Below are positions 5,815 to 44,937 of a stretch of DNA of 64,000 bases, one piece after another. Both the position numbers and the translations under genes were made by a program. Within the stretch, counting starts at the first letter, position 1. Each line of letters opens with the position of its first letter. Source of the DNA: Deltaproteobacteria bacterium (GTDB lineage: Bacteria > Myxococcota_A > Polyangia > Polyangiales > JADJMO01); assembly GCA_016182965.1 (NCBI GenBank), contig JACPFM010000024.1, forward strand, positions 15,891-79,890, in the 5' to 3' direction. Under the pieces are notes generated by a model, which was not told the origin of the DNA, searched no databases, and saw only the letters and a list, made by a program, of their open reading frames with translations.

Positions 5815-6957
5815 TCACGCCAGGGTATCGATCGTCGGGAAGCGCGCGTCTTCCGTGACGCAACCCCAGAGGAAGCACGCAAGACCGAGGTCACCCGTCC
5901 ACAGGGAGTAGCGTCCCTGCCCGTAGCGCGAGCGCGTCGCGTCGCAGCGCGCGATGGCGTTCATCGCGAAGGCCCGCGCACGATCGAGCCACGTCGCGTC
6001 GCCGGTCGCCGCGTGCAGCGCGAGGAACGCATACCCGTTACCGGCGTCGCCGTGACAGAGGTTCGTCCCCTTGCGGAGCGGGCCGGCGCGCTCGATGGCC
6101 GCGCCCGCCGCGCTCAGCGTCGGCAGCGACGCGCGCAGCCCGGCGAGGCCGACCACGAACCCGGGCGCGCCATGGCAGATCTGCATCAGGCGCGGCCGCT
6201 CCCCCGCGGTCGCCGGCCAGCTCGCGAGCTCGCCTTCTCGCACGGCCGTGCGCTCGGTCGCCGCGGCGACGCTCGTCTCGATCTCTTCGCGTACGCGCGG
6301 ATCGAGCAGCGGCGCGGCGCGCAGGAGCACCGCGGCGTTGCCGGCGAACCCGTGCACGAGGCCGAGGTAGCGCTCGGCGCCGCCGAAGAGACGCTGGGAG
6401 AACAGCCCGTCGGCGTCGCGCGTCGACCACATCGAGACGGCGCCGCGGCGCGCCAGCTCGGCGAAGCGGACGTCGCCGGTGCGCGCGTGCACCCGCGTGG
6501 CGACCAGCACGGCGCCGGGCGCGCCGAGCATCAGCTCGTTGGAGGGCAGCGCGAGGCACGCCTCGATCTCTCGCAGCAGCGCGTCCGCGAGCTCGGCGTC
6601 GGGCGCGACGGCGTTCGCGACGGCGAGCGCCCCGAGCCGGCCCATGAGGAACCCGCGTGATCGCGACCGCTCGTCGCACGTCGCGCGCGCGACGTCGCGG
6701 AGCCACGGCGGCGCGCTCGCGACGCCGGCGCGCGCGAGATGATCGATCGCCCACACGACGCCCGCGGTGCCCCAGTAGATCGACGTCGGCGGCGGCGGCC
6801 CGTGGGTCTCGGGCTCGTCGAGCGGATGCACGGGGAAGCCGCGCCCGTCGAACGCCCGCGCGGCGTCGTCGACGACGCGCGCGATGGCGTCGCGCGCGAC
6901 GCGCTCGTCCCAGACCCGCGACGGCAGCTCGAGGTGGCGGTCCGGCTCGAACAGCAT
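5815..6957 (-). CDS. LanC-like (lanthionine synthetase C-like) protein, stand-alone
   Basis: Zn-ligand / active-site motifs of the LanC fold are present: GLVHGFAGNA, MQICHGAPGFV, NLCHGDAGNGYAF. Start moved to the ATG at 6957 because GGAGGGGGG lies directly upstream; the track start at 6987 is a TTG. No signal peptide. Confidence 0.8.
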   Translation of the reverse strand: MLFEPDRHLELPSRVWDERVARDAIARVVDDAARAFDGRGFPVHPLDEPETHGPPPPTSIYWGTAGVVWAIDHLARAGVASAPPWLRDVARATCDERSRSRGFLMGRLGALAVANAVAPDAELADALLREIEACLALPSNELMLGAPGAVLVATRVHARTGDVRFAELARRGAVSMWSTRDADGLFSQRLFGGAERYLGLVHGFAGNAAVLLRAAPLLDPRVREEIETSVAAATERTAVREGELASWPATAGERPRLMQICHGAPGFVVGLAGLRASLPTLSAAGAAIERAGPLRKGTNLCHGDAGNGYAFLALHAATGDATWLDRARAFAMNAIARCDATRSRYGQGRYSLWTGDLGLACFLWGCVTEDARFPTIDTLA

Positions 6958-6987
6958 CCCCCCTCCGATGCCGCCGCCCGACGGCAA

Positions 6988-10419: not shown

Positions 10420-11058
10420 TCACGCGTCGTTTGAGCGGACCGCGCGGAGATCTTCGAACGCGGGGTGTCGGGGAATCCCGACCAACGCGTCGGAGATCCA
10501 CAAAGGCAGCTCCGCGTAGACCTTCCGGATGGCCCCGTCGCTGCAGCGCACGCACAGGAGAGCGTCGACGCCGTCGCGCGAGTTGTCGAAGACGTATGCG
10601 CGGTGCGCCAACGGAAGGGCGGCCGTGAGGTTCACGATGGATTTCTCGTAGCGAGAGATGATCTTCTCGATCGGCACGCTATGCCCCCCCGACATCACGC
10701 GCTGGGTGACGCGTGCGGCGTTGATCGTCGGGCTCTCGGTGCCGACGAAGAAGAGGCGCACGAAGTAGCCGGCGCTCCTGGCGCGACGAATGAACTCCAA
10801 CTTGTCCGGCGCGGACAGTACCGTCTCGAACGCGATGCCACGCTCGTTGGCCAGGAGCTCCTCTCGGCGATTCTCCGCCCATCGCGCAGCGTCGAGCACC
10901 GCACGGGTCGAATTCCAATCACCAAAGCGGTCCCGAGCGATCTCGTCCGGGTTGATGTACTCGACGCCCTCGCTCCAGCGGTCTTCTCGTAGCCGCTCGG
11001 TCACCGTCGTCTTGCCGGCTCCGTTCGGTCCGGCCACGACGATCAGGACCGGACTCAC
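10420..11058 (-). CDS. zeta-toxin-like P-loop kinase (COG4185-type), putative toxin
   Basis: VVAGPNGAGKTT Walker A, INPDEIA, FETVLS, GYFVRLFFVGTESPTINAARVTQRVMSGGHSVPIEKIISRYEKS, VFDNS. This matches the zeta toxin / predicted ABC-type ATPase family pattern. Local GC is visibly lower than in flanking genes. Confidence 0.85.
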   Translation of the reverse strand: MSPVLIVVAGPNGAGKTTVTERLREDRWSEGVEYINPDEIARDRFGDWNSTRAVLDAARWAENRREELLANERGIAFETVLSAPDKLEFIRRARSAGYFVRLFFVGTESPTINAARVTQRVMSGGHSVPIEKIISRYEKSIVNLTAALPLAHRAYVFDNSRDGVDALLCVRCSDGAIRKVYAELPLWISDALVGIPRHPAFEDLRAVRSNDA

Positions 11059-11279
11059 TTCTTCTCCGGAGTCGATGGCGATGTCCCGGTCGCCCGAGCA
11101 CGGGCCTCGGCCATGCGCTCCCGCATCTCTCGTTCAGCGAGCGCACGGCGTGCGGTGACGCCTTGAAACGCGCGATGCATCAGCTCACGGAGCTCCTCGT
11201 CCGTCGGCTCGTAGTTCGGGTCAGCGAGGTTCCGGTCAGCCACCGGACAATGGTAAGGCCTCGACGAGGATGGCGCCAA
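11055..11279 (-). CDS. putative antitoxin (small charged helical protein)
   Basis: 74-aa ORF overlapping the toxin start by 4 nt. No family recognised. The start codon is uncertain (TTG at 11279; an internal GTG is possible). Confidence 0.4.
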   Translation of the reverse strand: MAPSSSRPYHCPVADRNLADPNYEPTDEELRELMHRAFQGVTARRALAEREMRERMAEARARATGTSPSTPEKK

Positions 11280-12688: not shown

Positions 12689-13984
12689 CTACCTCCGCGC
12701 GACGAGCACCAGGATCACGATCAACAGCACGACCACGAGCGCGATCAGCGCGGTGTTCGTCTTGTTCGCGGGCGGGGCAGGACCGGGGACAGGCTGCGGC
12801 TGCGGCGGCGGGGGCGCGCTCGAGACCATCGTCTCGGCTGGCGGCGGCGCGGGCGGCATCGGGCTCGCCAGCGTGCCGCTCGACGGCGCCGCCGGTAGCG
12901 CGCCGGCGCTCGCCAGCGTTCCGCTCGAAGGCATGGGCTCGCGCAGGGCGACACCGCTCGCCGGCTCGGGCGCGCGCCGGGTCGAGACGTCCTCCTCCCG
13001 CGGACGCGGCGCGGGCGGGGCCAGCGACGCGCGGGCGGCGCGCTTCGCGCCGAGCACGCCGCTCTCGCGCAGGCCGAGCGCGTCGCGCAGCGCCGCGCGC
13101 ATCTCGCGCGCGTCCGCGAAGCGCGCCTTGGGATCCTTCTCGAGCGCGCGGAGGCAGATCGCTTCCAGCGCAGGATCCGCCGCCGCGCGCAGCGTCGTCG
13201 GCGGCGTGGGCTTCTGGTTGATGTGCGCGAGGAGCAGCTTGACGCTGTTCGACGACTTGAACGGCAGCTGCCCGGTGAGCATGTGATAGAGGATCACGCC
13301 GACCGAGTAGAGATCGCTCCGGCCGTCGAGCGGATCGCCCTTCGCCTGCTCCGGCGCCATGTAGTCGGGCGTGCCGACGAGCGAGCCCGCGATGGTGAGC
13401 GTCGCGGTCGCGGTCGCGGGCGGCTGCGTCGGATCCTTCGGCGGCTCCTGCGTCTTGACCTGCTTCGCGATGCCGAAGTCGCATAGCTTCACGATCTCGG
13501 CCGCGTCGCCGTCGTCGTCCCGACCGACGACGACCATCACGTTCTCCGGCTTGAGATCGCGGTGGACGATGCGCGCGTCGTGCATCACGGCGAGCGCGGC
13601 GAGGAGCTGACCGATCAGCTCGGCGACGCGCGTGCGATCGAGCGGGAAGTCGTCCTTCATGATCGCGCTCAGCGGCCGACCGTCGATCAGCTCCATCGCG
13701 ATGTAGAGGAGATCGCCGTCCTCGCCGAAATCGATCACCCGCATGAGGTTCGGGTGATCGAGCTGCGACGCGGCGTTCGCCTCGCGCTTGAACCGCGCGG
13801 CGTACGTCGGGTCATCGAGGAGCTCGGTGCGCAGCACCTTGATCGCGACCGCGCGGCGCAGGCTCTTCTGCCGCGCGCGGTACACGGCACCCATGCCGCC
13901 GCGACCGATCAAGCACTCGATCTCGAACTTGCCGTCGATCAGCCGCCCGATGAGCGGGTCGGTGGCGGGCTCGGGGCCGAACAT
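12689..13984 (-). CDS. Ser/Thr protein kinase with C-terminal TM anchor
   Basis: [40 protein letters not shown]. Pro/Ala-rich linker and terminal TM segment ALIALVVVLLIVILVLVARR. ATG at 13984 preferred over the GTG at 14005. Confidence 0.9.
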   Translation of the reverse strand: MFGPEPATDPLIGRLIDGKFEIECLIGRGGMGAVYRARQKSLRRAVAIKVLRTELLDDPTYAARFKREANAASQLDHPNLMRVIDFGEDGDLLYIAMELIDGRPLSAIMKDDFPLDRTRVAELIGQLLAALAVMHDARIVHRDLKPENVMVVVGRDDDGDAAEIVKLCDFGIAKQVKTQEPPKDPTQPPATATATLTIAGSLVGTPDYMAPEQAKGDPLDGRSDLYSVGVILYHMLTGQLPFKSSNSVKLLLAHINQKPTPPTTLRAAADPALEAICLRALEKDPKARFADAREMRAALRDALGLRESGVLGAKRAARASLAPPAPRPREEDVSTRRAPEPASGVALREPMPSSGTLASAGALPAAPSSGTLASPMPPAPPPAETMVSSAPPPPQPQPVPGPAPPANKTNTALIALVVVLLIVILVLVARR

Positions 13985-14196
13985 GCGGGCGCGAGAGTAG
14001 CGCACGGCGCGGGCCGTGGCCGCATGCGCCGCCGAGCCAGGGAATTTTGCGGTCCGTGCGCGGCGCTGCGTCGCTCGCCCGCCGCGCGCGCTCGAGGAGG
14101 CGATCGGGATGGGAGCGGATTACCGGGACCGTGCGTCGCTCGTGGTCGGGTCCGCGGCGAGACGACGCGGAGGCCGACGCCGGCTACCATTTGTCC

Positions 14197-14379
14197 GTGA
14201 ACCGCGCGCCGGTCCGCGCATGGGCGCTCGTCCTCCTTTCGATCGCGGTCGCGCTGTTCGTCTCGCCGCTGCGCGCGACGTGGGTCTCCGCCGCGCCGTG
14301 GTGGGCGATCCTGTTCGCGTGGGGCGCCGTGGCGGTGCTCGCGGTGCTCAGCGCCCGAAGGGCCGACGATGCGGAGTGA
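14197..14379 (+). CDS. small 2-TM membrane protein translationally coupled to the sensor kinase
   Basis: In-frame GTG at 14197 within track ORF 14047..14379 gives about 60 aa: VNRAPVRAWALVLLSIAVALFVSPLRATWVSAAPWWAILFAWGAVAVLAVLSARRADDAE. It overlaps the ATG of the next gene (14369) by 11 nt. The start is uncertain. Confidence 0.35.
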   Translation: MNRAPVRAWALVLLSIAVALFVSPLRATWVSAAPWWAILFAWGAVAVLAVLSARRADDAE

Positions 14380-17175
14380 CGTCGCGCTCCTCGCCGCCGG
14401 GACGATCGGTTACCTCGCGCTGCTCTTCTCCGTCGCGCGCGTCGTCGATCGCGGCGGACGCGCGGTGCACCTCGCCCGGAGCCCGGTCGTCCAGCTCCTC
14501 GCGCTCGGCATCTACGCGTCGACGTGGACCTTCTACGGCACCGTCGGGTTCGCCCGCCGCACCGGGTTTCTCTACCTCGCGATCTACCTCGGACCGACCA
14601 TCGCGTGCCTCGCCGCGCCCTTGATCTGGGAGCGGGTGCTGCGCGTGTCGCGCGAGCAACGGCTCTCGTCCGTGGCCGATCTGTTCGCCGCGCGCTTCCG
14701 GAGCCCCGCGGTGGGCGCGGCGGTCACCGTCCTCTCGGTGACCGCGAGCGTGCCGTACCTCGCGCAGCAGATCCGCGCCGTCGAGGACGCGACGACGGTC
14801 CTCGTCGGCACCTCCGCGCGAGGCGCCATCGCCGTCGGGTTCGCGGCCGTGCTCGCCGCGTTCGCGGTCCTCTTCGGCGCTCGCTCCAAGGAGCTGCACG
14901 AGCCGCGCGGCGGGCTGGTGGTCGCCGTCGCGCTCGAGTCGCTCGTGAAGCTCGTCGCCTTGATCGCGGTCGCGATCGTCGCCACCGCCGCGGTCGGCGG
15001 GCTCGGCGCGGTCGACGCGCGCCTGCGTGAGACCTCGCGCGCCGCGATCGGCGGTCCGACGTGGACGACGCTGATCCTGCTGTCGGCGTCGGCGTTCTTC
15101 CTGTTGCCGCGGCAGTTCCACGTCGCGTTCGCCGAGGGGAGCTCGCAGAAGACCTTCCGCCGGGCCACCGCGGGGTTCCCGCTGTACCTGCTCGCCACGG
15201 CGGCGACGTTCCCGTTCATCGTCGCGGCCGCGAACCAACACCCCGAGCTCGCGCCCGACGTCGTCGTGCTCGCGTTGCCGCGTCGGATGGGCGCGTCCGT
15301 CGTCACGCTCCTCGCGTTCCTCGGCGGCATCTCCGCCGCGTTCGCGATGGTCAGCGTCACGGCGATCGCGCTCGCGGCGATGGTGGTCCACCACCTCGTC
15401 CTCCCGCTCCGCCCGGCGCTGCTCCGGCACGACGCGTACGGGCGGGTGCGCAACCTGCGCGCCGCGCTGATCGTGGCGCTCGTCGCGTGCGGCCTCCTCT
15501 TCGCCTTGGCGCGCCCGCCGGGCGAGCCGCTCGCGGATTTCGGCCTCGTGTCGTTCGTCGCGTTCGCCCAGCTGCTCCCCGCGCTCGTGGCCGCCCTCTT
15601 CGCGCGCGGCGCGAGCGCCGTCGGCGTGCTCGCGGGCCTCGCCGCCGGGACCGTCGTGTGGGTGATGACCGCGCTGATCCCCTGGTTGTCGCGTGCGACA
15701 TCAGGTGTCGCCGATCCGTGGACCCTTCCCACGTGGGCATCGCTGGCGGCGAACGTCATCGGGCTGGCCGTCGGCTCGACGCTTCGCCCCCCGCGCGCGG
15801 AGGAGCGCGACGCGGCCGCCCGGTTCGTCGACGAGCCCCTCGCCGCGCACGCCCCCGGCGCCCTCGCCCGCTCGCCGCGCGAGTTCCTCGACGGGCTCGC
15901 GCCGCTGCTCGGCGAGGCGACGGCGCGGGCGGAGGTCGAGCGCGCGTGCCGCGAGCTCGGGCTCGGCCTCGAGGAGCGGAGGCCGGAGGCCCTGCGGGCG
16001 ATCCGCGACCGACTGCTGCAGAACCTCTCGCGCGTGGTCGGACCGATCGTCGCGCGCACGATCGTCGACGCCGCCGTCGACGCGACGAGCGATCCCGGCG
16101 ATCGGCTGCGCGAGCTCGACGCGCGCCTGGCGGTGGCCGGGCCGCTGTCCGGCGCCGCGGCCGAGATCGATCGCGTGCGCCGGCACCTCCGCGCCGTCGT
16201 CGATCGGCTCCCCATGGGCGTCTGCGTCGTCGACGGCGAGCGGAGGGTCGTGCTGTGGAGCGAGGCGCTCGCGCACCTCACCTCGGTCGTGCCCGAAGCG
16301 GCCGTCGGCCTCGGGCTGCTCACGCTGCCTGCCCCGTGGGGCTCGCTCCTCGACGAAGAGCTCGACCGCGGCGTCGACGCCGAGGTGCAGGTCGGCAGCC
16401 GTCGGGTGCGGGTGCGGCGCGCGCGCCTCGAGGGCGACGACGGCCGATTCGACCTCTTGCTCGTCGAAGACATGACCGAGCGCCGCGCGCTCGAGGACGA
16501 GCTCGTGCACCGCGATCGCCTCGCCGCGATCGGGCGGCTCGCCGCGGGCGTCGCCCACGAGATCGGCAACCCGCTGACCGGGATCACCTCCCTCGTGCAG
16601 AACCTCCGCGACGACGTCGACGACGACGCGCGCGCCCGCCTCGATCTCGTGCTCACCGAGTCGAGGCGCATCGCCGCGATCGTGCGGGCCCTGCTCGGCT
16701 ACAGCCGCAACGCCCCGGAGGCGCTCGACCGGAGGCCCGTCTCGCTGCGCGAGATCGCCGAGGAGGCGGCGCGGCTCGTGCGGCTCGATCGGGAGCGCGC
16801 CGCCACCCGGACGACGATCGACCTCGCCGACGACCTCGTCGTCGTGGGCGATCGACCGCGTTTGACGCAGCTCGTCGTCAACCTGCTGACCAACGCGTGC
16901 GACGCAGCGCCGAGCGGGACCGTTCGCGTGAGCGGTGAGCGGGACGGCGACGCCGTGGTCCTGCGGATCGCCGACGACGGCGCCGGGATGCCCGAGTCGG
17001 TTCGTGCGCGGATCTTCGAGCCGTTCTTCACGACCAAGCCCGTCGGGCGCGGGACCGGCCTCGGGCTGTCGCTGGTCGAGGCGATCGCGCGCGCGCACGG
17101 CGGCACCGTCGACGTGCAAAGCGTCGAGGGACGCGGTACCACGATGATCGTCCGCATGCCTTCCGCCGGAGCCGG

Positions 17176-17179
<4 letters not shown>
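14369..17179 (+). CDS. sodium:solute-symporter-domain sensor histidine kinase (CbrA/CrbS-like)
   Basis: The N-terminal roughly 480 aa is polytopic and SSF-like. It is followed by a PAS-like region and H-box AHEIGNPLTGI, then N/G boxes NLLTNACDA, DDGAGM, GTGLGLSLV. Confidence 0.9.
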
Positions 17180-18474
<1,295 letters not shown>

Positions 18475-18482
18475 GGAGAATC

Positions 18483-18504
18483 CCCCCGGACTTCAGTCCG
18501 GGGG
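18483..18504 (+). terminator. stem-loop immediately after the response-regulator gene
   Basis: CCCCCGGAC-TTCA-GTCCGGGGG: perfect 9-bp stem and 4-nt loop, starting 9 nt after the stop. No U-tract (common in GC-rich genomes). Confidence 0.5.
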
Positions 18505-18514
18505 ACTCGCCTTG

Positions 18515-18529
18515 GTTACCGAACGTAAC
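18515..18529. promoter_or_regulatory. AT-rich inverted repeat GTTAC-N5-GTAAC, candidate enhancer-binding-protein site
   Basis: GTTACCGAACGTAAC lies about 70 nt upstream of the sigma54-like element. It is an AT-rich dyad in an otherwise GC-rich spacer. Assignment as a UAS is inference only. Confidence 0.25.
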
Positions 18530-18594
18530 GGGCGACGTTCCCCTTCCACCCGCGCGACGCAGCGCGTGAGCGGGAATCCTCGCGGATCGTCTCT

Positions 18595-18609
18595 GGCGCG
18601 CGCGTTGCG
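18595..18609 (+). promoter_or_regulatory. sigma54-type promoter (-24 GG / -12 GC)
   Basis: TGGCGC-GCGCG-TTGC matches TGGCAC-N5-TTGC with exact GG/GC spacing. It sits downstream of a sigma54 activator gene and upstream of the porin-acs-actP genes. Caveat: the -12 element is only about 14 nt from the porin ATG. Confidence 0.45.
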
Positions 18610-18623
18610 AAGAGCTCTCGCGC

Positions 18624-19958
18624 ATGCGACCTCTCGCCCTCTTCGGCCTCGCCGCGATCGCCCTGACGACGACCGCGCGCGCAGTCGCCGCGGAGTGGGA
18701 TCCCGGCGAGGGGGCGAAGCTGAAGCTGTCGGCCGACGGCAAGGCGAGCATCCGCTTCCTCACCTGGCATCAGGTGTGGTTGCGGCACGGCGAGCTCAAC
18801 CCCGGCTCGATCGTGCGCGAGCAGGAGCGCGACACGGCGACCGACATCGGCATCCGGCGCTCGCGGTTCCTGATCCACGCGAGGCCCACCGCGGACCTGA
18901 CGATCGTCCTGCACTTCGGGATCAACAACCAGAGCACGGTCGGGGGCGGCTTCGGCGCCGGCACCGACGGACCGAAGAAGCCGCAGCTGTTCGTCCACGA
19001 CGCGTACGGCGAGCAGCGCGTGCTGGGCCAGGCGCTCTACCTCGGCGCCGGGCTGCACTACTGGAACGGGATCTCGCGCATGTCGAGCGCGAGCACCGTC
19101 ACGTTCCTCGGCATCGACTCGCCGATCGTGCACTGGCCGACGATCGACAAGACCGATCAGTTCGCCCGGATGATCGGCGTCTACGCCAAGGGGGAGCTCG
19201 GTCGGGCGCACTACCGTGTCGCGCTGAACCAGCCGTTCGTCACCGAGTCCAAGCCCGCCGAGCGGCGCGCCGACTTCGCGTCCGACACGCGCACCTTCGC
19301 CGTGCAGGGGTACGCGAAGATCGATCTCTTCGACAAGGAGAGCCACGCGCTCCCCTACTTCGCCGGGACGTACCTCGGGAAGAAGCGCGTGCTGTCGCTC
19401 GGCGTCGGCTGGTTCTACCACCCGCGCGGGGCGGTGTGGCTGGAGGACGGCGCGCGCGTGCACGGCGCCGTGCTCCTCCGCGGCCTCGACGCGTTCCTCG
19501 ACCTGCCGATGGACCGCGGTCGTCAGGCGCTCACCGCCTACGCGAGCCTGCTCCACTACGACCTCGGACCGAACTACCTGCGCAGCGTCGGGATCATGAA
19601 CCCATCGACCGGGCTCGCGACCGACGGCCGTACGTCGATCAACGGCGCGGGCAACGCGGCGCCGATCCTCGGCACCGGCACCATCGTCTACGCGCAGGCC
19701 GGTTGGCTGCTGCCCGGAACGCTCGGCGACGCGGGGCGACTGCAGCCGTACGTCGCGTTCACCCTCGCCAGGTTCGACGCGCTCGACGATCGGGTGACCA
19801 TCCCCGAGGCGGGCGTGAACTGGCTGATCGTCGGCCACCACGCGAAGCTCACCCTGCACGCGCGCAGTCGCCCCGTGTTCTTCGCCCAGCCCGACGGACG
19901 TCCCCGCGCCGAGGGGCGCAAGGGCGAGGTCATCGTGCAGGGCCAGTTCTTCTTCTGA
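18624..19958 (+). CDS. outer-membrane porin (phosphate-selective porin O/P-like)
   Basis: Signal peptide [25 protein letters not shown]. Alternating beta-strand-like sequence. C-terminal ...VIVQGQFFF (terminal Phe). Confidence 0.7.
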
Positions 19959-19975
19959 CCGCCCAGGAGGACGTC

Positions 19976-21861
19976 ATGGACCGAGCCGAATACGAGCGAC
20001 TGTATGCAGAGAGCCTGCGCGATCCCGAGGCCTTCTGGCGCAAACAGAGCGAGCGGCTGACCTGGTATCACCCGCCGCACTCGATCCTCGACGTCGACCT
20101 GGAGGAGGTCGACTTCTCGTGGTTCTCCGGCGGGCGACTCAACGTGTCGTACAACTGCGTCGACCGGCACGCCGAGACCCGCCCGAACAAGCCCGCGCTC
20201 ATCTGGGTGGAGAACGATCCCGGCAAGCAGCGCGCCTGGACCTTCCGGCAGCTGAAGCACGAGGTCGGGCGGATCGCCAACGTGCTGCGCGCGCACGGCG
20301 TGCGCAAGGGCGATCGCGTGTGCCTGTACATGCCGATGATCCCCGAGCTGGTGTTCACGATGCTCGCCTGCGCGCGCATCGGCGCGGTGCACTCGGTGGT
20401 GTTCGGCGGGTTCTCGTCGGAGTCGCTCCGCGAGCGCATCCTCGACGCGCAGTGCGCGGTGGTCGTCACCGCCAACGAGGGCCCGCGCGGCAACAAGCGG
20501 ATCCCCCTCAAGCAGATCCTCGACGTCGCGCTCGAGGGCGTCGACAGCGTCAAGTACGTCTTCGTCGTCCGGCGCACGGCGACGGAGGTCGCGATGAAGC
20601 AGGGACGCGATCTCTTCCTCGACGAGGAGACCGTCAAGCAGCGCTCGACGTGCCCCGCCCAGTGGATGGCGTCGGAGGATCCGTTGTTCATCCTCTACAC
20701 GTCCGGCTCGACCGGCCGCCCCCCACCGCGGGCTACCTGCTCTACGCGGCGCTGACGCACGAGACGATCTTCGGCGCCGAAGAGGACGCGGTGCACTTCT
20801 GCACGGCAGACGTCGGCTGGATCACTGGACACAGCTACGTCGTCTACGGGCCGCTGGCCAACGGCGTGACCACCGTCCTCTTCGAGGGTCAGCCGACGTG
20901 GCCCAACGCGGGGAGGTGCTGGGACATCGTAGACGCGGTGAAGGCGACCTCGTTCTACACCGCGCCGACCGCCCTGCGGTCGCTGATCGCGGAGGGCGAT
21001 CAGCACCTCGAGCGGTCCTCGCGCGAGTCGCTGCGCGTCCTCGGCTGCGCCGGCGAGCCGATCAACCCGGAGGTCTGGCGCTGGTACCACGAGAAGGTCG
21101 GCCGCGGGCGCTGCATGGTCGCCGACACGTGGTGGCAGACGGAGACCGGCGGCGTCCTGGTCGCCCCGATCCCCGGCGCGGTCGACGAGCTCAAGCCCGG
21201 CTCGGCGATGAAGCCTTTCTTCGGCATCGAGCCGATCCTCGTCGACGAGGAGGGCCGCGTCGTCGACGGCAACGGCGTCAGCGGCAACCTGTGCATCGCG
21301 CGTCCGTGGCCCGGGCAGGCCCGCACGCTGTGGGGCGATCACCGGCGCTTCCGCGAGACCTACTTCGGCAGGTTCCCGAGCCTGTACTTCACCGGCGACG
21401 GCTGCCGTCGCGACGAGGACGGCGATCTGTGGATCACCGGACGCGTCGACGACGTCCTCAACGTGTCGGGTCACCGCCTCGGCACCGCCGAGATCGAGAG
21501 CGCGCTGGTGGCGCACGAGGCCGTCGCCGAGGCGGCGGTGGTCGGCATCCCGCACGCCATCAAGGGAACCGGCATCTACGCCTACGTCACCGTCCGCGCC
21601 GACGCGGCCGAGTGGCCGTCGGAGCAGCTCGTCGGCGCGCTCAAGGAGCAGGTCCGCCACGTGATCGGCCCGATCGCGACGCCGGACGGCATCCGCGTGG
21701 TCGCCGGGCTCCCCAAGACGCGTTCCGGGAAGATCGTGCGGCGCCTGCTGCGCACCATCGCGATCGGCGGATCGGACTGGGGCGACGTCTCGACGCTCGC
21801 CGATCCGAGCGTGCTCGACGAGCTGACCAAGGGACGCGCCGCTCCGGCGCAGGCTACGTGA
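19976..21861 (+). pseudogene. acs: acetyl-CoA synthetase, disrupted (deletion plus frameshift in the P-loop)
   Basis: RBS GGAGGA at 19963-19968. Codons 1-249 read ...[16 protein letters not shown], then run to a stop at 20753-20755. The remainder ([75 protein letters not shown]) continues in the -1 frame to 21861. The conserved KGVLH(T) is missing at 20722/20723. Confidence 0.85.
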
Positions 21862-21871
21862 AGGAGGCGAG

Positions 21872-22252
21872 ATGTCGAACGAGAAGACGTCGGAGAAGCT
21901 GGCTCGTGATCTCGATCGCCTCGCGTCGATGCGCGCCCGCGTCGCCCTGGGGCTCACCGCGGCGATGCTCGTGTCCTACTTCGGATTCATCCTGCTCGTG
22001 GCGTTCCGCAAGCCCATGCTCGGAGCGACGATCGTGCCGGGCTTGAGCCTCGGCATCGCGCTCGGCGCGGCGGTGATCGCGATCGCCTGGACGCTCACGG
22101 GCATCTACCTGCGCTGGGCCGGCGCCCGCTGGGACACGGCGGTGGAGGCGCTCCGGCGCGAGCACGGCCTCGCCCCGGCGCCGGCGGCCGCGACGGCCGA
22201 GGCGATCGTGATCGTCCCGGTCTCGCCGTCGGTCGCGCCGGAGGCGTCGTGA
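21872..22252 (+). CDS. DUF485 (YjcH-like) inner-membrane protein
   Basis: 126 aa with two TM segments (LGLTAAMLVSYFGFILLVAF, LGIALGAAVIAIAWTLTGIYL). Precedes actP and overlaps it by 4 nt, as yjcH-actP does in E. coli. Confidence 0.8.
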   Translation: MSNEKTSEKLARDLDRLASMRARVALGLTAAMLVSYFGFILLVAFRKPMLGATIVPGLSLGIALGAAVIAIAWTLTGIYLRWAGARWDTAVEALRREHGLAPAPAAATAEAIVIVPVSPSVAPEAS

Positions 22253-23781
22253 CGACGTCGCTCGGGCAGCCGAGCGGGACGGCCGTCGCGTTCTTCGTGG
22301 TGTTCATCGGGCTGACGCTGGCGATCACCGGCTGGGCGGCGCGCAAGACCAAGAGCACCTCCGAGTTCTTCACCGCTGGCGGCAACGTGACCGGCGCGCA
22401 GAACGGCTTCGCGCTCGCCGGCGACTTCATGAGCGCCGCGAGCTTCCTCGGCATCGCGGGGCTCGTCGCGCAGTCCGGCTTCGACGGGCTGATCTACTCC
22501 GTCGGTTGGCTGGTCGGCTGGCCGGTCGTCACCTTCCTCGTCGCGGAGCCGCTCCGCAACCTCGGCAAGTACACGTTCGCCGACGTCCTCGCGGCGCGGC
22601 TGCGTCAGCGTCCGATCCGGATCGCCGCGGCGTTCTCCGGCCTCACGGTGGTCGGGTTCTACCTGATCGCGCAGATGGTCGGCGCGGGCTCGCTCGTGCA
22701 GCTCCTGTTCGGGCTCTCGTACGAGACGGCGGTGCTGGCGGTCGGCGGCGTGATGCTCGTCTACGTGCTGTTCGGCGGGATGATCGCGACGACGTGGGTG
22801 CAGATCGTGAAGGCGGTGCTGCTCCTCGGCGGCGCGATCCTGCTCGCGGCGATGACGCTGTCGAAGTTCGGTTGGAGCCCGCTCCGGCTGTTCGACGCGG
22901 CGGCCACGAAGTACGGGCCGGCGGTCCTCGCGCCCGGCAAGCTGGTGACCCGGCCGCTCGAGGCGATCTCGCTGGGGATCGCTCTGATCTTCGGGACCGC
23001 GGGGCTGCCGCACATCCTCATGCGCTTCTACACCGTGCGCGACGCGAAGACCGCCCGCGCCTCGGTCTTCTACGCGACCGGGATCATCGGGCTGTTCTAT
23101 CTGGTGACGTTCGTCCTCGGCTTCGGCGCCGCGGTGCTCGTCGGACGCGACTCGATCGCGTCGGTCGAGAAGGGGGGCAACATGGCGGCGCCGCTGCTCG
23201 CGGAGGTCCTCGGCGGGCGCCCGATGCTCGGCTTCGTCTCCGCCGTGGCGTTCGCCACGATCCTCGCCGTCGTCGCCGGTCTCACGCTCTCGGGCGCGGC
23301 GGCCCTCTCGCACGACCTCTGGGTCTCGGTGGTGAAGCGCGGGAAGGCGAGCGAGGACGAGCAGCTCTTGGTCGCCAAATCGGCGACGGTCGCGCTCGCC
23401 GTCTCCGCGATCGGGCTCGGGATCGCGTTCAAGGGTCAGAACGTCGCGTTCATGGTCGGCCTCGCCTTCGCCATCGCGGCGAGCGCGAACTTCCCCGCGC
23501 TCTTGATGAGCGTGACGTGGCGTCGGTTCACGACGCGCGGGGCCGTCGCCAGCATGGTCACCGGCACGGTCGTCTCGCTCGGTTTGATCGTGATGTCGCC
23601 GACGGTGCAGGTCGATCTGCTGCACCACGCGAGCGCGCTGTTCCCGCTGAAGAACCCCGCGCTGATCAGCGTCCCGCTGTCGTTCGTCGTCGGGATCGTG
23701 GTGTCGCTGCTCGCGCCGGAGCCCGAGTCGGAGTCCGCCTGGGCGGGCGTGCGGGCGCGCATGTACCTCGGCGACGGCTGA
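22249..23781 (+). CDS. actP: cation/acetate symporter (SSF family)
   Basis: FFTAGGNVTGAQNGFALAGDFMSAASFLGIAGL, GLPHILMRFYTV. Polytopic, and located in the acs/DUF485 context. Confidence 0.9.
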   Translation: MTTSLGQPSGTAVAFFVVFIGLTLAITGWAARKTKSTSEFFTAGGNVTGAQNGFALAGDFMSAASFLGIAGLVAQSGFDGLIYSVGWLVGWPVVTFLVAEPLRNLGKYTFADVLAARLRQRPIRIAAAFSGLTVVGFYLIAQMVGAGSLVQLLFGLSYETAVLAVGGVMLVYVLFGGMIATTWVQIVKAVLLLGGAILLAAMTLSKFGWSPLRLFDAAATKYGPAVLAPGKLVTRPLEAISLGIALIFGTAGLPHILMRFYTVRDAKTARASVFYATGIIGLFYLVTFVLGFGAAVLVGRDSIASVEKGGNMAAPLLAEVLGGRPMLGFVSAVAFATILAVVAGLTLSGAAALSHDLWVSVVKRGKASEDEQLLVAKSATVALAVSAIGLGIAFKGQNVAFMVGLAFAIAASANFPALLMSVTWRRFTTRGAVASMVTGTVVSLGLIVMSPTVQVDLLHHASALFPLKNPALISVPLSFVVGIVVSLLAPEPESESAWAGVRARMYLGDG

Positions 23782-23835
23782 TGTCGCGTGGCGCTCCCTC
23801 GACGGCCGTCCGCGGTCGGGCTATCGCAGTGCGTC

Positions 23836-24678
<843 letters not shown>

Positions 24679-37030: not shown

Positions 37031-37088
37031 CGACTGACGACTCGCGCGACTGACGACTGACGACTGACGACTGACGACTGACGACTCG
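37031..37088. repeat. heptamer array, start-proximal arm: CGACTGA, CGACTCG, CG, (CGACTGA)x5, CGACTCG
   Basis: Five perfect units at 37047-37081. Followed by GAGGA (37088-37092) and the E2 ATG at 37100. Confidence 0.95.
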
Positions 37089-37099
37089 AGGAACTCAAC

Positions 37100-38524
37100 A
37101 TGGCCCGCTGGGAATTCAAGCTGCCCGACATCGGCGAAGGCGTGACCGAAGGCGAGATCGTCTCCTGGCTCGTGAAGCCGGGTGAGCACGTCAAGGAAGA
37201 CCAGCCGATGGTCGAGGTCATGACCGACAAGGCGACGGTCACCATCACCTCGCCGAAGACGGGGACGATCGCCGAGCTGCACGGCAACGTCGGCCAGGTC
37301 GTGAAGGTGCACGCGGTGCTGGTCAGCTACGACCTCGGCAACGGCGGCACCGCCTCCACCTCCGCGAGCACGTCGGCGGCCGCGGCCCCCTCCCCGAGCG
37401 TCGCGGCGGCGCCTACCGCGCAGTCCGCCGGGCTCGGGACGAAGGCGGCCGGTCCTGCTGCCACGGCGGTCGGCGACATCAGGGAGGATCTGCCGGGCAT
37501 GTCGCTGATGCGCGGCTCGGCCCCGGCCGAAGCCCCGATCGCGGCCGCCGCGCCGGCGACCTCCGGCTACTTCGCCGAGAAGCCGCTCGCCACGCCGGCG
37601 ACGCGCAAGCTCGCGCGCGATCTCGAGGTCGATCTGCGGCGGGTGCCGCCGACGGGCGAGAACGGCCGGGTGACCCGAGACGACGTGCAGCGCTTCAAGG
37701 GCGGAGCCCACGCCAACGGCCACCATGCGCCCGCCGCGCCCGCCGCGCCCGCCGCGGCGCCTCCCGCGCCGGCCGCCGCCCGCGCGCCGGTGGTCATCGC
37801 GCCGCCGGCCGGCAACGCACAGGAGCTCGAGGAGCGCGTCCCCTTCGTCGGCGTGCGCCGCAAGATCGCCGAGCGGATGGCGCAGTCCAAGCACACCGCG
37901 GCGCACTTCACCTTCGTCGAGGAGTGCGACGTCACCGAGCTGAAGAGGGTGCGCGAGCGCCTCAGGCCGCACGCCGAGAAGGCGGGCGTCAAGCTCACGC
38001 CGCTCGCGTTCATCGCCAAGGCGGTCGTCGCCGCGCTGGCCAGGCACCCGACGCTCAACAGCGCGCTCGACGAGTCGACCAACGAGCTGGTCATCCGCAA
38101 GTACGTCAACCTCGGCATCGCCGCCGCGACCGACGCGGGGCTGATGGTCCCGGTGGTCAAGGACGCCGATCGCAAGTCGATCCTCGAGCTCGCGCGCGAC
38201 ATCGAGCGCCTCGGCACCGGCGCGCGCGACGGCAAGCTCAAGCCGCAGGATCTGAGCGGGTCGACGTTCACCATCACGTCGCTCGGCGCGCAGGGCGGCC
38301 TGTTCGCCACGCCGATCATCAACTTCCCCGAGGTGGCGATCCTCGGCGTGCACCAGATCAAGCAGAAGCCGGTGGTGCGCGACGGGCAGATCGTCATCGG
38401 CGAGGTGATGCTCCTGTCGCTCTCGTTCGACCACCGCATCATCGACGGGCACGTCGGCGCGGCGTTCGCTTACGAGGTGATCGGCTACCTGCAGGAGCCC
38501 GATCGGCTGCTCCTCGAGGGCTGA
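37100..38524 (+). CDS. dihydrolipoamide acyltransferase E2 (branched-chain type)
   Basis: Lipoyl domain (VEVMTDKATVTITSP), Ala/Pro linkers, E3/E1-binding domain (ATPATRKLARDLEVDL) and a catalytic domain with SFDHRIIDG. Confidence 0.92.
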   Translation: MARWEFKLPDIGEGVTEGEIVSWLVKPGEHVKEDQPMVEVMTDKATVTITSPKTGTIAELHGNVGQVVKVHAVLVSYDLGNGGTASTSASTSAAAAPSPSVAAAPTAQSAGLGTKAAGPAATAVGDIREDLPGMSLMRGSAPAEAPIAAAAPATSGYFAEKPLATPATRKLARDLEVDLRRVPPTGENGRVTRDDVQRFKGGAHANGHHAPAAPAAPAAAPPAPAAARAPVVIAPPAGNAQELEERVPFVGVRRKIAERMAQSKHTAAHFTFVEECDVTELKRVRERLRPHAEKAGVKLTPLAFIAKAVVAALARHPTLNSALDESTNELVIRKYVNLGIAAATDAGLMVPVVKDADRKSILELARDIERLGTGARDGKLKPQDLSGSTFTITSLGAQGGLFATPIINFPEVAILGVHQIKQKPVVRDGQIVIGEVMLLSLSFDHRIIDGHVGAAFAYEVIGYLQEPDRLLLEG

Positions 38525-38602
38525 TCGCGGCGCACAGCAAGAGGGGGCGAGCGGACGCGAGCGTTTGCGCACGAGCCCTGCCGGTGGTAGCCCGGTGGCG
38601 GC

Positions 38603-40150
38603 GTGCCCCGTTTCGATGTGAGCGAAGACGTCCCCAACGGCCCCGCGCCCCCCTCGCCCGAGCCGGCGCAGAGCGGCAGCGTCGCGGCGCGCTCGCAGGT
38701 CGACGAGACCTCGCCCGCGATCTCCGGCCGCGCGCACGCGTGGTTCTGGCTCGCCATCGGCTGCGCGATCGTCGGCGTGGTGCAGGTGCCGCTCGTGCTC
38801 GTCGCCCACCGCGGCGCGGCGCCCCCGACGGCCGTGGCGGCCGCCCCCGCGCCGCCGATCGCGAGCGCCGCCTCCGCGATCGCGACGCCTGCCGCGAGCG
38901 CGCTCCCGCCCGAGCCCGCCACCGCGCCGCGCCTCGCGCAGCTCGAGGGCGACGCGATCGAGGTGCTCCACACCAAGGTCGGCAAGCGCACGTGCGTCCA
39001 GGCGCTCGAGGCGCTCGGCGTCGCTCCCGGCGATCTCGCGCGCGTGTCGACCGCCCGCTCGCCGCTGCGGAAGCTCGACGGCTGCTCGCCGAACGATCGC
39101 GTCTTCGTGGCGCTCGGACGCGCCGATCGTCGGCTGCGCGGCCTCGAGATCGAGACCGCGCCGGGCACCCTCGTGCAGGTCCTCGAGAAGCAGGTCGCCG
39201 GCGAGGCGGGCGCGAGCCTCGAGCTCGTCGCCGAGGCGGTCACGCTGCCGGTGACGCACAAGCGCTTCACGACCTCATTCGTCGTGACGACCGACGTCCC
39301 TTCGGCGGTCGTCGCCGCAGGGCTCGACGGCTCGATCGTCGAGCTGCTCGACGAGGCGATCGGCTCGCGCCACGACGTCCCGGCGCCGGTGCGCGGGTCG
39401 ACCTTCCGGGTGATCGCCGACGCCACGCTCGTCGCGGGCCTGTTCGACCGCTGGGACGAGGTCGTCGCCTTCGAGTACCGCCCGCGCGCCGATCTCGCGC
39501 CCGTGCGCCTCTATCACACGCGCGGGAAGCCCGGCGCGCTCGGCTGGTTCGATCCCAAGGGGCATCAGCCGGTGCGCACGCGGTGGCGCATGCCGCTCGC
39601 CTTCCCGCGCATCACCTCGCGCTTCAACCCGCGGCGGCTCCACCCGGTGCTCAAGGTGGTGATGCCGCACAACGGCTGCGACTTCGCCGCGGCGCCCGGC
39701 ACGCCGGTGTACGCGATCGGCCCCGGCGTGGTGCAGTTCCGCGGCGACAGCGGCCCGAGCGGCAACCTGGTGACCATCGGGCACGAGGGCGGCATCGAGT
39801 CCGGCTACGCGCACCTGTCGCGGTTCGCGCCCGGCGTGGTCGCCGGCACCCACGTCGAGGCGCGCACCGTCGTCGGCTACGTCGGGACGACCGGCCGCTC
39901 GACGGGGCCGCACCTGCACCTCTCGGTGAAGCGCAACGGCGTCTTCGTCGATCCCCTGTCGCTCAAGATGGACGCCTTCCGCGTCGTCCCGCCGAGCGAG
40001 CGCTCCGGCTTCTCCGCGCGCAAGGCGGAGGCCGACGCGCTCCTCGACGCGATCCCGTGGCCGGCCGATCTGCCCGTGGTGGCGGCCCCCGCCGCGGCCT
40101 CCGCCTCCGCCGAACCGGCCGGCGAAGAAGGAGACGAGCCGCTGCACTGA
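38603..40150 (+). CDS. M23 family metallopeptidase, membrane-anchored
   Basis: GTG start. TM segment WFWLAIGCAIVGVVQVPLVLV. HNGCDFAAAPGTPVYA, GYAHLS and GPHLHLSV motifs. Confidence 0.8.
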   Translation: MPRFDVSEDVPNGPAPPSPEPAQSGSVAARSQVDETSPAISGRAHAWFWLAIGCAIVGVVQVPLVLVAHRGAAPPTAVAAAPAPPIASAASAIATPAASALPPEPATAPRLAQLEGDAIEVLHTKVGKRTCVQALEALGVAPGDLARVSTARSPLRKLDGCSPNDRVFVALGRADRRLRGLEIETAPGTLVQVLEKQVAGEAGASLELVAEAVTLPVTHKRFTTSFVVTTDVPSAVVAAGLDGSIVELLDEAIGSRHDVPAPVRGSTFRVIADATLVAGLFDRWDEVVAFEYRPRADLAPVRLYHTRGKPGALGWFDPKGHQPVRTRWRMPLAFPRITSRFNPRRLHPVLKVVMPHNGCDFAAAPGTPVYAIGPGVVQFRGDSGPSGNLVTIGHEGGIESGYAHLSRFAPGVVAGTHVEARTVVGYVGTTGRSTGPHLHLSVKRNGVFVDPLSLKMDAFRVVPPSERSGFSARKAEADALLDAIPWPADLPVVAAPAAASASAEPAGEEGDEPLH

Positions 40151-40171
40151 GCTCCGCTCCGAGCGCTCTCG

Positions 40172-40192
40172 CTTCGACCTTCGACCTTCGAC
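40172..40192. repeat. tandem heptamer (CTTCGAC)x3
   Basis: gCTTCGACCTTCGACCTTCGACcc in the M23 to RavA-like spacer. Confidence 0.9.
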
Positions 40193-40260
40193 CCAGCGCG
40201 CATCCATCGCGGCAACGCTCCGGCCACGCGAGCGCGAAAGTGCACTACGATGGCGCCCCG

Positions 40261-41427
40261 ATGCCGGCAGCGCCCCTCCATCGCCGTCTCGAAGCGGTCG
40301 CGCGCGATCTGGAGACGCGGTTCCTCGGCCGCAGCGAGGTCATTCGCTGCATGCTCGTGTCGGCGCTCGCCGGCGAGCACGTGGTGCTGGTCGGTCCGCC
40401 GGGCACCGCCAAGAGCGCGCTTGCCCGCACCTTCGCGCGCCTGTGCGACGCGGTGTACTTCGAGTACCTGCTCACGCGCTTCACCGAGCCGAACGAGCTG
40501 TTCGGGCCGGTCGACATCGCCGCGTTCCGCGAGGGCACCTACCGGCGCAAGACCGCCGGCATGCTCCCCGAGGCCGAGATCGTCTTCCTCGACGAGGTGT
40601 TCAAGTCCAACAGCGCGATCCTCAACTCGCTGCTGACGCTGCTGAACGAGCGGCGATACGTCTCCGGCGGCGTGACCGTCGAGTGCCCGCTGATCACCGT
40701 GATCGGCGCGTCCAACGAGGTGCCGGCCGACGCCGATCTCGCCGCGATCTTCGATCGCTTCCTGCTGCGCGTCCGCGCCGACTACCTCGACGCGTTCCAC
40801 TTCCAGGACCTGCTGCAGCGCGGCTGGGAGCTCGAGGCGCAGCTCGTGTCCAACGCGCGCCCGCAGCCGCTGCTCGGCGCGGCCGAGCTGCGCGAGGCCC
40901 AGAGGCAGCTCGCGCGGCAGACGCGCTTCGACGACGCCTTCCTCAACGCCTACCGCGGCCTCGTGTTGCAGATCCGCGCCGAGGGCATCGGCCTCTCCGA
41001 CCGACGCGTCGTGAAGCTCCTCAAGCTGTGCGCGGCCAGCGCGTTCCTCGACGGCCGCGTCGCGCCCGATGCGAGCGATCTGTTCCTCCTCAAGCACGTG
41101 TGGAACGCGGAGGATCAGGCGGCGATCCTCGAGTCGCTCGTGCAGCCGGTGCTCGAGGCGCACTACCGCGAGCACCCTGAGGCCCGCCGCATCGGCGCCG
41201 CCGCGGTCGGGCTCCCGGCGATCGAGGCCGAGATCGAGCGCGTGCGCACCGTGCTCGCCGGCGGCGGCGCGCTCTCCGACGTGCAGCTGTTCTCGCAGCT
41301 CAAGCTGCTGGGCGAGCTGAAAGGCGCGCTCGCCAGCCACGCCGACGGCAAGGCGCGCGAGCTCGCCGGCCGCGTCGACACGCTGCTCGACGCCGCCTTC
41401 AAGGGCGGCCGCTTCGGCGCGCTCTGA
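40261..41427 (+). CDS. MoxR-class AAA+ ATPase, RavA-like
   Basis: ATG at 40261. LVGPPGTAKSALAR (Walker A), FEYLLTRFTEPNELFGP, AEIVFLDEVFKSNSAILNSLLTLLNER (Walker B / sensor) and SDRRVVKLLKLCAASAFLDGR align with E. coli RavA as recalled. The upstream 779 aa of track ORF 37924..41427 are shadow frame. Confidence 0.85.
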   Translation: MPAAPLHRRLEAVARDLETRFLGRSEVIRCMLVSALAGEHVVLVGPPGTAKSALARTFARLCDAVYFEYLLTRFTEPNELFGPVDIAAFREGTYRRKTAGMLPEAEIVFLDEVFKSNSAILNSLLTLLNERRYVSGGVTVECPLITVIGASNEVPADADLAAIFDRFLLRVRADYLDAFHFQDLLQRGWELEAQLVSNARPQPLLGAAELREAQRQLARQTRFDDAFLNAYRGLVLQIRAEGIGLSDRRVVKLLKLCAASAFLDGRVAPDASDLFLLKHVWNAEDQAAILESLVQPVLEAHYREHPEARRIGAAAVGLPAIEAEIERVRTVLAGGGALSDVQLFSQLKLLGELKGALASHADGKARELAGRVDTLLDAAFKGGRFGAL

Positions 41428-41480
41428 TGGTGTCGGCGCTCACGGCACCGCGGCGACGTCGGTGTCGCTCGCGCGGGCCG

Positions 41481-41503
41481 GGTCGAAGGATCAAGGTCGA
41501 AGG
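41481..41503. repeat. two copies of GGTCGAAGG (reverse complement of CCTTCGACC) with 14-nt period
   Basis: GGTCGAAGG atcaa GGTCGAAGG, enclosed by the 7-bp inverted repeat CCGGGTC (41478-41484) / GACCCGG (41507-41513). Confidence 0.8.
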
Positions 41504-41532
41504 CGAGACCCGGTGCTGTAGAATGACGCGAC

Positions 41533-41799
41533 ATGCGCGCCATTCGCGTCCTCGACTCCGCCCCCCTCGTCCGTCGCGGTGTCGTCGTGCTCGAGCTCGA
41601 CACGCCGAGTCCGCTGCTCGGCGTCGCCATCGGCATGTTCGCCGAGATCGTGTGGAAGGACGGCGGCCGCGAGCGCGTCGACATCAAGGGCCTGGGCTTC
41701 GCCAGCTCCACGCCCGAGCACGCGCACCTGATCGTCGGCGCCCCCAAGCGCGGCGAGTTCCAGGAGATCGAGCGCATCGAGATCGAGCCGCGCGCGTGA
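41533..41799 (+). CDS. small hypothetical protein
   Basis: 88-aa ORF with ordinary composition and a 6-nt gap to tatD. No family recognised. Confidence 0.4.
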   Translation: MRAIRVLDSAPLVRRGVVVLELDTPSPLLGVAIGMFAEIVWKDGGRERVDIKGLGFASSTPEHAHLIVGAPKRGEFQEIERIEIEPRA

Positions 41800-41805
41800 G
41801 GGCGC

Positions 41806-42585
41806 GTGCGCGCGATTGACACGCACGTGCACCTCGACGACCCGGCGTTCATCGAGGGCGCAGCGGCGGTGTGGCAGGAGGCGCGCCGCGCCGGCGTGGA
41901 GGGCGCGATCGCGGTGGGGGTGGAGCCGGCGACGTGGTCGCGCACCCTCGCGGTCGCGCGCGGGCTGCCGGGCGTGCGCGTCGCGCTCGGGATCCACCCG
42001 CAGGCGGTGCCCGCGCTCGACGACGAGACCATCGGGCGCGCGCTCGCGGATCTGCCGGCGCTGCTCGGCGACCACGGCGCGGTGGCGATCGGCGAGTGCG
42101 GCCTCGACGGGCCGGCCGGCGATCTCGATCGGCAGGGGCGCGTGCTCCGCGAGCAGCTCGCGCTCGCGCGCGATCTCGCGCTGCCGGTGTCGCTGCACGT
42201 CTTCCGGGTGCACGGGCCGGCGCTGAAGCTCCTGCGCGACCTCGGTCCGCTCCCGGCCGGCGGGGTGGTCCACAGCTACTCGGGCTCCGCCGAGCTGGTG
42301 CGCGACTACCTTCGCCTCGGGTGGTCCTTCTCCTTCGCGGGCGCGGTCACCCGCTCGAACGCGAAGCGCCCGCTGGCCGCGGCGCTGGCGGTGCCGCTCG
42401 ATCATCTCCTGGTGGAGACCGACGCGCCGTTCCAGCCGACCGGCGCCGACGCGCGCGATCGCACGCGCGGCGAGCCGCGCGATCTGCCGGAGGTGATCGG
42501 CGCGCTTGCGCGCGCGCGCGGGCTCGATCCCGAGGAGCTCGCCGAGACGACGACCGCGAACGCGCGGCGCATCTTCCGCCTGTGA
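41806..42585 (+). CDS. TatD family metal-dependent hydrolase
   Basis: GTG start. IDTHVHLDD, GECGLD, SLHVF, VVHSYSGS, LLVETDAPF. Confidence 0.88.
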   Translation: MRAIDTHVHLDDPAFIEGAAAVWQEARRAGVEGAIAVGVEPATWSRTLAVARGLPGVRVALGIHPQAVPALDDETIGRALADLPALLGDHGAVAIGECGLDGPAGDLDRQGRVLREQLALARDLALPVSLHVFRVHGPALKLLRDLGPLPAGGVVHSYSGSAELVRDYLRLGWSFSFAGAVTRSNAKRPLAAALAVPLDHLLVETDAPFQPTGADARDRTRGEPRDLPEVIGALARARGLDPEELAETTTANARRIFRL

Positions 42586-42617
42586 GTCGACTACGCCGTG
42601 GCCGGCCGAAAATCGCG

Positions 42618-43442
42618 TCAGGGGAAAAAGAGGATCGGGTGGTCGGTGGTGAGGTCGAAGTGCAGGTGATCGAAGTGCGAGGCGTTGTAGTTCGGGCTGA
42701 TGCCGCTATCGAACGCCTCGGTCGCGTTCACCTGGCAGAAGATCGCCCATAGCTCCCGCGCCACCTTGGTGTCGGGCAGCGGCTTGGCGGCGGTGGTGCC
42801 GCAGGAGGTCTGGCCGATCTTGCCGTGGAAGTCCTTCTCGACGCTCCACAGCTGGCCCTTCTTGGTCTTGAACCCGGAGACGTCGATCGCGAAGCCGATG
42901 CGGTGCCGCAGCGGCGCGTTGGGGTCGAGGATCGCCTGGTTCGGGCGGTGGAACGACTTCACCATCACGTGGGTGATCGAGTGCTTCTTGACCACCTTCG
43001 CGAGCTCGATCAACGACACCGCCAGCCGGCAGTCGATGGCGTCGCCGGCGGCGACGGTGCGCTGCGCGTACGAGCGGCCGGTGTCGAAGTGCACGCCGCC
43101 GATGGCCCCGGTGACGATGATCGGGAACTCGATCTTCGGGGCGCCCGGCGCCTTGCTGAAGGGCACCTTCGCCTTCTTGAGCGCCTTGATGCAGGCGGCC
43201 TCGTCGAGAGCGCCGATCTGCGCGCTCTTGCGGGCGGCGGCGACGGCGAAGCCGAAGCTCGCGTCGTCGCCGTCGCTCCGGGCCGCGTCGCGCGCCGGGC
43301 TGTCATAGGCCTCGCCCGGCGGCGGCGCCTCCACGACGTCGTTGACGCGCGCGCCGCCCTCGACCGGGGCGCGATCGGCGGCCGGGGGGAGCGCCGCGAG
43401 GACGCCCCCGAGGAGCAGACCGACCGCGCGCCACGAGCCCAT
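42618..43442 (-). CDS. exported protein with extensin-like C-terminal (LAS-type) domain
   Basis: ATG at 43442. Signal MGSWRAVGLLLGGVLAALPPAA. RHRIGFAIDVSGFKTKKG and SPNYNASHFDHLHFDL resemble the Extensin-like_C family from memory. Confidence 0.55.
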   Translation of the reverse strand: MGSWRAVGLLLGGVLAALPPAADRAPVEGGARVNDVVEAPPPGEAYDSPARDAARSDGDDASFGFAVAAARKSAQIGALDEAACIKALKKAKVPFSKAPGAPKIEFPIIVTGAIGGVHFDTGRSYAQRTVAAGDAIDCRLAVSLIELAKVVKKHSITHVMVKSFHRPNQAILDPNAPLRHRIGFAIDVSGFKTKKGQLWSVEKDFHGKIGQTSCGTTAAKPLPDTKVARELWAIFCQVNATEAFDSGISPNYNASHFDHLHFDLTTDHPILFFP

Positions 43443-44916: not shown

Positions 44917-44937
44917 GAAGAGCTCCGAGGCTCGAAG

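Follow-up and report, generated by a model that had tools for sequence, protein, structure and literature searches.

The acetyl-CoA synthetase gene (acs) of the window, by which we mean the whole 64-kb stretch of DNA analysed here, carries a 16-nt deletion that removes half of a catalytic motif and shifts the reading frame. An independent copy of the locus, intact and otherwise identical, was found in public metagenome data, and the window acs is therefore either a recent knockout allele or an assembly error. We judge it probable that this is a genuine, very recent loss-of-function allele, which an uncultivated Myxococcota population carries alongside the intact one.

The acs reading frame and its deletion

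The acs gene starts at the ATG at 19976, with AGGAGG located 8 nt before it, and the lesion was confirmed to the base by reading of the open reading frames and by comparison with a near-identical contig (L001, described below). The gene is represented by the following features:

19976-20755, + strand: acs 5' fragment, defined by reading frames and Pfam
20722-20723, + strand: deletion junction, where the intact allele has 16 further nt, AAGGGCGTGATGCACA
20725-21861, + strand: acs 3' fragment, in the -1 frame relative to the 5' fragment, defined by reading frames, alignment to 2p2b and Pfam

The 5' fragment encodes 249 native residues up to ...STGRP, followed by 10 out-of-frame residues and a premature TGA stop at 20753-20755, while the 3' fragment encodes 378 residues, from TAGYLLY... 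to the native stop at 21859-21861. The gene thus does not form a single uninterrupted reading frame, and the earlier note had read both the stop and the continuation of Acs in the -1 frame correctly. The 3' fragment retains the C-terminal domain and the A10 catalytic lysine motif (PKTRSGKI, within LPKTRSGKI). Pfam analysis places ACAS_N at the start of acs and AMP-binding_C at its end (E=9e-24), and the AMP-binding profile is divided between the two pieces, the 5' one covering profile positions 2-177 and the 3' one 185-378. Residues 22-648 of the Salmonella Acs (2p2b) align to the window acs (E=1e-219) with one gap, KGVLHT, which falls at the junction.

Across the junction the window reads GGCCGCCCC joined directly to CCACCGCGG, and the C6 run at 20719-20724 arises from this joining. 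The placement of the 16-nt gap is unique, and comparison of the flanking bases with the ends of the deleted segment gives a junction microhomology of 0 nt. The residues lost are K-G-V-M-H, together with the first base of the next Thr codon. A deletion of 16 nt at 20722/20723, inside the C6 run, had been proposed from the window alone, and the comparison with L001 shows this to be exact; the loss of five P-loop residues also stands, but the fourth of them is M (KGVMH in L001) and not the L of the proposed K-G-V-L-H.

As encoded, the window acs is a predicted pseudogene or null allele, and its reading frames indicate that it cannot give an active enzyme. An in-frame GTG is present at 20791, 36 nt past the premature stop, and re-initiation could occur there. 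The claim that acs is inactivated holds for the window copy, which cannot give functional Acs, but it does not extend to the organism as a whole, as an intact, otherwise identical allele exists in the same population.

Identity of the enzyme and the lost A3 motif

NCBIfam scores were taken on the Acs sequence with the 16 nt restored from L001. The restored protein passes the curated equivalog and subfamily cut-offs for acetate--CoA ligase, with 920.9 bits against TIGR02188 (cut-off 724.95) and 934 bits against NF001208 (cut-off 657), and aligns end to end with the AMP-forming Acs of Salmonella enterica (1pg4, 2p2b). The window copy differs from such enzymes in lacking the KGVMH of A3 and in being split over two frames: it reads TSGSTGRP, after which the frame shifts and the second half of the A3/P-loop motif is absent.

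The lost segment belongs to core motif A3, the phosphate-binding loop of the ANL superfamily, whose consensus is (T/S)SG(T/S)TGLPKGV(M/L)(L/H) and in which substitutions reduce or abolish activity (PMC8388817). The best 120 full-length Acs homologues, which share 65-73% identity and are mostly from Myxococcota, all carry TSGSTGxPKGV[LMV]H..[AG]GY without interruption (120/120). The earlier argument that the loss goes beyond a homopolymer miscall is borne out by the 16 extra nt of L001; likewise, the alignment to relatives that had been proposed for sizing the deletion gives, with the near-identical L001, exactly 16 nt.

Two Acs homologues on the match list (P0036 and P0045) come from a single Archangium gephyra genome, from which it follows that loss of one copy may be tolerable in this group, and Acs redundancy is plausible. 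The search for a second acs or an ackA-pta pathway, as recommended in the earlier note, was made within the 64-kb window, where a Pfam survey of the ORFs revealed neither a further acs nor an ackA or pta gene.

An intact allele in the same groundwater population

The Logan contig SRR12113421_175203 (L001, 3,973 bp) was retrieved through an exact-protein match of the neighbouring ActP. Aligned with window positions 20381-24337 (3,957 nt), it shows 0 mismatches and one 16-nt gap: at window 20722/20723 it has the additional AAGGGCGTGATGCACA, and it encodes the intact ...STGRPKGVMHTTAGY... in one frame. The run SRR12113421 is a groundwater metagenome from Modesto, California (bioRxiv 10.1101/2024.02.19.580942).

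Logan contigs from this run and from its sibling run, SRR12113422, were compared with the window. Contig L082 (SRR12113421) matches window 18206-20387 (2,182 nt) at 100%, as does L084 over window 40461-45983 (5,523 nt), while L083 matches window 37062-48834 (11,773 nt) with one mismatch. This mismatch, at 39057, is a clean SNP (G in the window, T in L083) which turns an Arg codon (CGC) into a Leu codon (CTC) in the gene for an M23 peptidase, located at 38603-40150. Over about 17.9 kb, the window and the Logan contigs therefore differ by one SNP and one 16-nt indel, with no further difference. Such near-identity implies that both sample one population with slight real microdiversity, and the matching sequences place the intact allele in the same groundwater population, or aquifer sample series, as the window.

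The contig L085 (SRR12113422), which was reached via DUF485, ends about 670 nt short of the lesion, and this route gave no second contig covering the site. Adjacent contigs of a de Bruijn graph are expected to share k-1 bases; L082 and L001 overlap by only 7 nt (window 20381-20387). This short overlap suggests a coverage drop-out and a low abundance of the organism in SRR12113421, in which case few reads stand behind the intact allele there and they set no bounds on the allele frequencies.

The host, an uncultivated groundwater bacterium of the Myxococcota, has no close relative among the GTDB representative genomes, in which the closest Acs, from Myxococcota MAGs and Polyangium, has 69% amino-acid identity. 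An exact search of these genomes with a lesion-spanning 59-mer gave no match, and neither did a gapped pattern accepting either allele, or a junction-specific 30-mer, in JGI metagenome contigs, from which the organism is absent. In a protein collection searched by exact look-up, neither the truncated 5' product nor any of nine possible 3' products was on record, and six other window proteins likewise gave no match. The Logan contigs for this organism are short. The collections searched for the junction and its products evidently do not contain the source assembly of the window.

The acs operon and its regulators

The genes and sites surrounding acs are as follows:

14369-17179, + strand: sensor histidine kinase with PAS, HisKA and HATPase domains (Pfam), homologues of which adjoin acs in relatives
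17176-18474, + strand: NtrC/AtoC-type sigma54-dependent response regulator with REC, AAA+ sigma54 interaction and HTH domains
18594-18608, + strand: candidate sigma54 -24/-12 box, TGGCGCGCGCGTTGC, with 1 mismatch to the consensus
18624-19958, + strand: porin-like protein of 444 aa, with a weak ExtI porin match; next to acs in L003 and L004
21872-22252, + strand: DUF485 (YjcH-like) small membrane protein (Pfam)
22249-23781, + strand: ActP-like cation/acetate symporter of the SSF family (Pfam; NCBIfam best match to the ActP subfamily)

The acs, DUF485 and actP genes lie on one strand, with a gap of 10 nt between the first two and an overlap of 4 nt between the last two, and neither a sigma70-like promoter nor an intrinsic terminator was found within 18400-24000. 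This arrangement is consistent with a single transcription unit. The kinase, regulator, acs, DUF485 and ActP genes are also clustered in the related loci L002, L003 and L004, with differences in order and orientation; all three share the order acs, DUF485, ActP and have an unbroken acs, and L003 and L004 have the porin-like gene as well.

The regulator matches the Pfam sigma54-activator domain (Sigma54_activat) at E=1.8e-72, and its gene start is overlapped by the 3' end of the sensor kinase gene. About two one-mismatch matches to the -24/-12 consensus are expected by chance in the whole window, and the window-wide count is not above this; as the match alone is weak, support for the promoter comes from its position and its conservation. 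The box has the GG-N10-GC element, the gene for an enhancer-binding protein is adjacent, and six relatives (L002, L003, L004, L049, L079 and L081) have an equivalent box upstream of their first operon gene, one of these boxes being the near-identical TGGCGCGCGTGTTGC of a Myxococcaceae MAG. The operon thus appears, from these features of its sequence, to be controlled by a sigma54 promoter and the adjacent two-component activator. Only 16 nt separate the end of the box from the ATG at 18624 of the porin-like gene, while the L003 equivalent lies about 60 nt upstream of its start codon; so short a distance implies that the transcript has almost no leader or that the start codon is set wrongly. 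Just past the regulator stop, at 18484-18506, comes CCCCCGGACTTCAGTCCGGGGG, a nearly perfect GC-rich inverted repeat that lacks a T-run and might act as a terminator-like hairpin or as a binding site for a protein.

The N-terminal half of the sensor kinase (14369-15940, about 500 aa) is hydrophobic and probably forms a multi-pass membrane region, for which no Pfam match, SSF included, was obtained even at E<=5. It may represent a sensing domain that is not yet characterised and perhaps responds to acetate or short-chain acids. Kinase homologues adjoin acs in Myxococcota and in Halopseudomonas (L079, L081), and the same holds for the kinase-regulator pair. The best NCBIfam matches, AtoS for the kinase core and NtrC/AtoC for the regulator, liken the pair to the sigma54 systems of the AtoS/AtoC and CbrA/CbrB type, which serve short-chain acid use; however, all scores fall far under the equivalog cut-offs and the N-terminal region of the kinase sets it apart from these systems.

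The 444-aa protein preceding acs scores 34 bits against the ExtI porin model (cut-off 150) and has no Pfam match; it ends in ...QFFF and shows, by eye, an N-terminal hydrophobic leader, and from these traits a porin is plausible. The ActP-like symporter scores 683 bits against the ActP subfamily model (cut-off 750). The sigma54-controlled porin-acs-DUF485-actP context described in the earlier note is supported as regards the activator, the conserved box and the gene order, but its porin is a sub-threshold match. Its view that the rest of the operon is intact was also sustained, the DUF485, actP, porin-like, kinase and regulator genes all being full length.

The acs-yjcH-actP operon of E. coli is an acetate-scavenging operon under the control of sigma70 and CRP. 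The window operon resembles it in the order of acs, the YjcH-like DUF485 gene and the ActP-like gene and in their tight spacing, and differs from it in the porin-like gene that precedes acs and in its apparent control by a sigma54 promoter and an adjacent two-component activator.

Other genes in the window

A bpMoxR-type AAA+ ATPase is encoded at 40270-41427, adjoining an M23 peptidase gene and two genes for trypsin-like proteases; the bpMoxR family marks MoxR-vWA-beta-propeller ternary systems. A LanC-like protein and two Ser/Thr protein kinases are encoded at 5815-6987, 12689-14005 and 58099-59937, and a Zeta-toxin-like P-loop kinase at 10420-11133, gene content which is typical of Myxococcota. 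The region 53200-58100 has a weak or atypical coding signal, and neither its 772-codon stop-free frame (53963-56281) nor several short, high-GC3 minus-strand ORFs gave a Pfam match.

A real allele or an artefact

The lesion, its exact size, the existence of an intact allele and the conserved operon context are demonstrated, and what has to be weighed is how the deletion came to be in the window. If it is a young loss-of-function allele, a 16-bp deletion would have stripped K-G-V-M-H from the A3 phosphate-binding motif of an AMP-forming acetyl-CoA synthetase and shifted the frame, so that translation would end 10 codons past the deletion and no active Acs would be made from this copy, and the deletion and intact alleles would share one population. 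The deletion would then exist in real DNA molecules, beyond the assembly, and its haplotype would lose acetate activation from this locus. A polar effect of the premature stop is possible, and the expression of DUF485 and actP downstream may drop.

About 45 other ORFs in the window cover Pfam models end to end, with none of them split, and a GC3 frame scan of the window revealed no other unexplained frame switch. The absence of a further split gene indicates that the assembly is not systematically indel-prone, an explanation which we therefore rejected, while the clean SNP at 39057 indicates that the window does capture true variants. Given 0 nt of microhomology at the junction, a de Bruijn assembler, if one was used, would not have created it by a repeat-mediated mis-join, because the junction k-mers must occur in reads.

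The main competing explanation, which we consider clearly less likely than a young null allele, is a local artefact of assembly, polishing or curation, whereby the acs of the organism is intact and 16 bases were lost during contig building or editing. It draws on the fact that the deletion is seen solely in the window, and in no other public sequence or protein record searched, whereas the one independent assembly that covers this site has the intact sequence and is identical elsewhere, which also counts against a real allele. Furthermore, the deletion removes an invariant catalytic motif that is normally protected by selection. The rest of acs is free of further mutation, as an artefact would have it, although this fits a very young lesion equally well. 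An artefact is harder to reconcile with 0 other split genes among the ORFs of the 64 kb, 0 other indels in the 17.9 kb compared with Logan contigs, an ordinary DNA secondary structure (z = -0.5), a junction without any repeat or microhomology to mislead a k-mer assembler, and a size of 16 nt, which is far above that of a homopolymer miscall.

Two ways in which the bases might have been lost were considered and rejected. A hairpin-mediated deletion or sequencing drop-out is not indicated, as the intact 60-mer folds ordinarily (z = -0.5 and +0.2 for the two strands), and a slipped-strand or microhomology deletion would require shared bases, of which there are none at either breakpoint. A blunt deletion without microhomology is not the commonest type of spontaneous deletion. 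In other respects, namely one small out-of-frame deletion in a pristine gene with an intact allele alongside, the window acs resembles segregating loss-of-function alleles and frameshift pseudogenes, and the lack of junction microhomology is the sole slightly unusual feature in comparison with these.

A more far-reaching form of the young null allele, in which it is real, at appreciable frequency and maintained beside the intact allele in the aquifer Myxococcota population, is in our view improbable. Should it be true, it would be a natural instance of the adaptive loss of a gene from a conserved acetate-scavenging operon under sigma54 control, selected perhaps because uncontrolled Acs activity is costly, or because acetate activation is dispensable or shared in the community.

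We give very little credence to a fixed, older pseudogene in a lineage that gave up Acs-dependent acetate scavenging and whose operon is decaying. Disruption at an essential motif would suit such a history, but apart from the 16 nt acs does not differ from the intact allele, the five companion genes are all full length, and the pristine state of the rest of the operon and the coexistence of an intact allele in the same aquifer sample series make it unlikely. Programmed recoding, in which ribosomal frameshifting or transcriptional slippage at the C6 run of the junction restores the product, can practically be dismissed, since no frameshift can return five missing invariant residues which the 120 closest homologues and the other allele of the population encode in one frame.

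Implications for annotation and for the acetate operon

At this locus, which the same population also carries intact, the window represents a single haplotype or the version given by a single assembly. The lesion is ordinary in either case, as a very recent knockout allele or as a local error of assembly; it is no new kind of biology and is of little importance past annotation. In annotation, acs should be recorded here as frameshifted (a pseudogene or variant allele), with mention of the population's intact copy, and metabolic reconstructions from this genome should not infer that the lineage cannot activate acetate. The module of kinase, sigma54 activator, porin-like protein, acs, DUF485 and actP extends the known acetate-scavenging operons, without being a new system, and its conservation in Myxococcota offers mildly useful comparative information.
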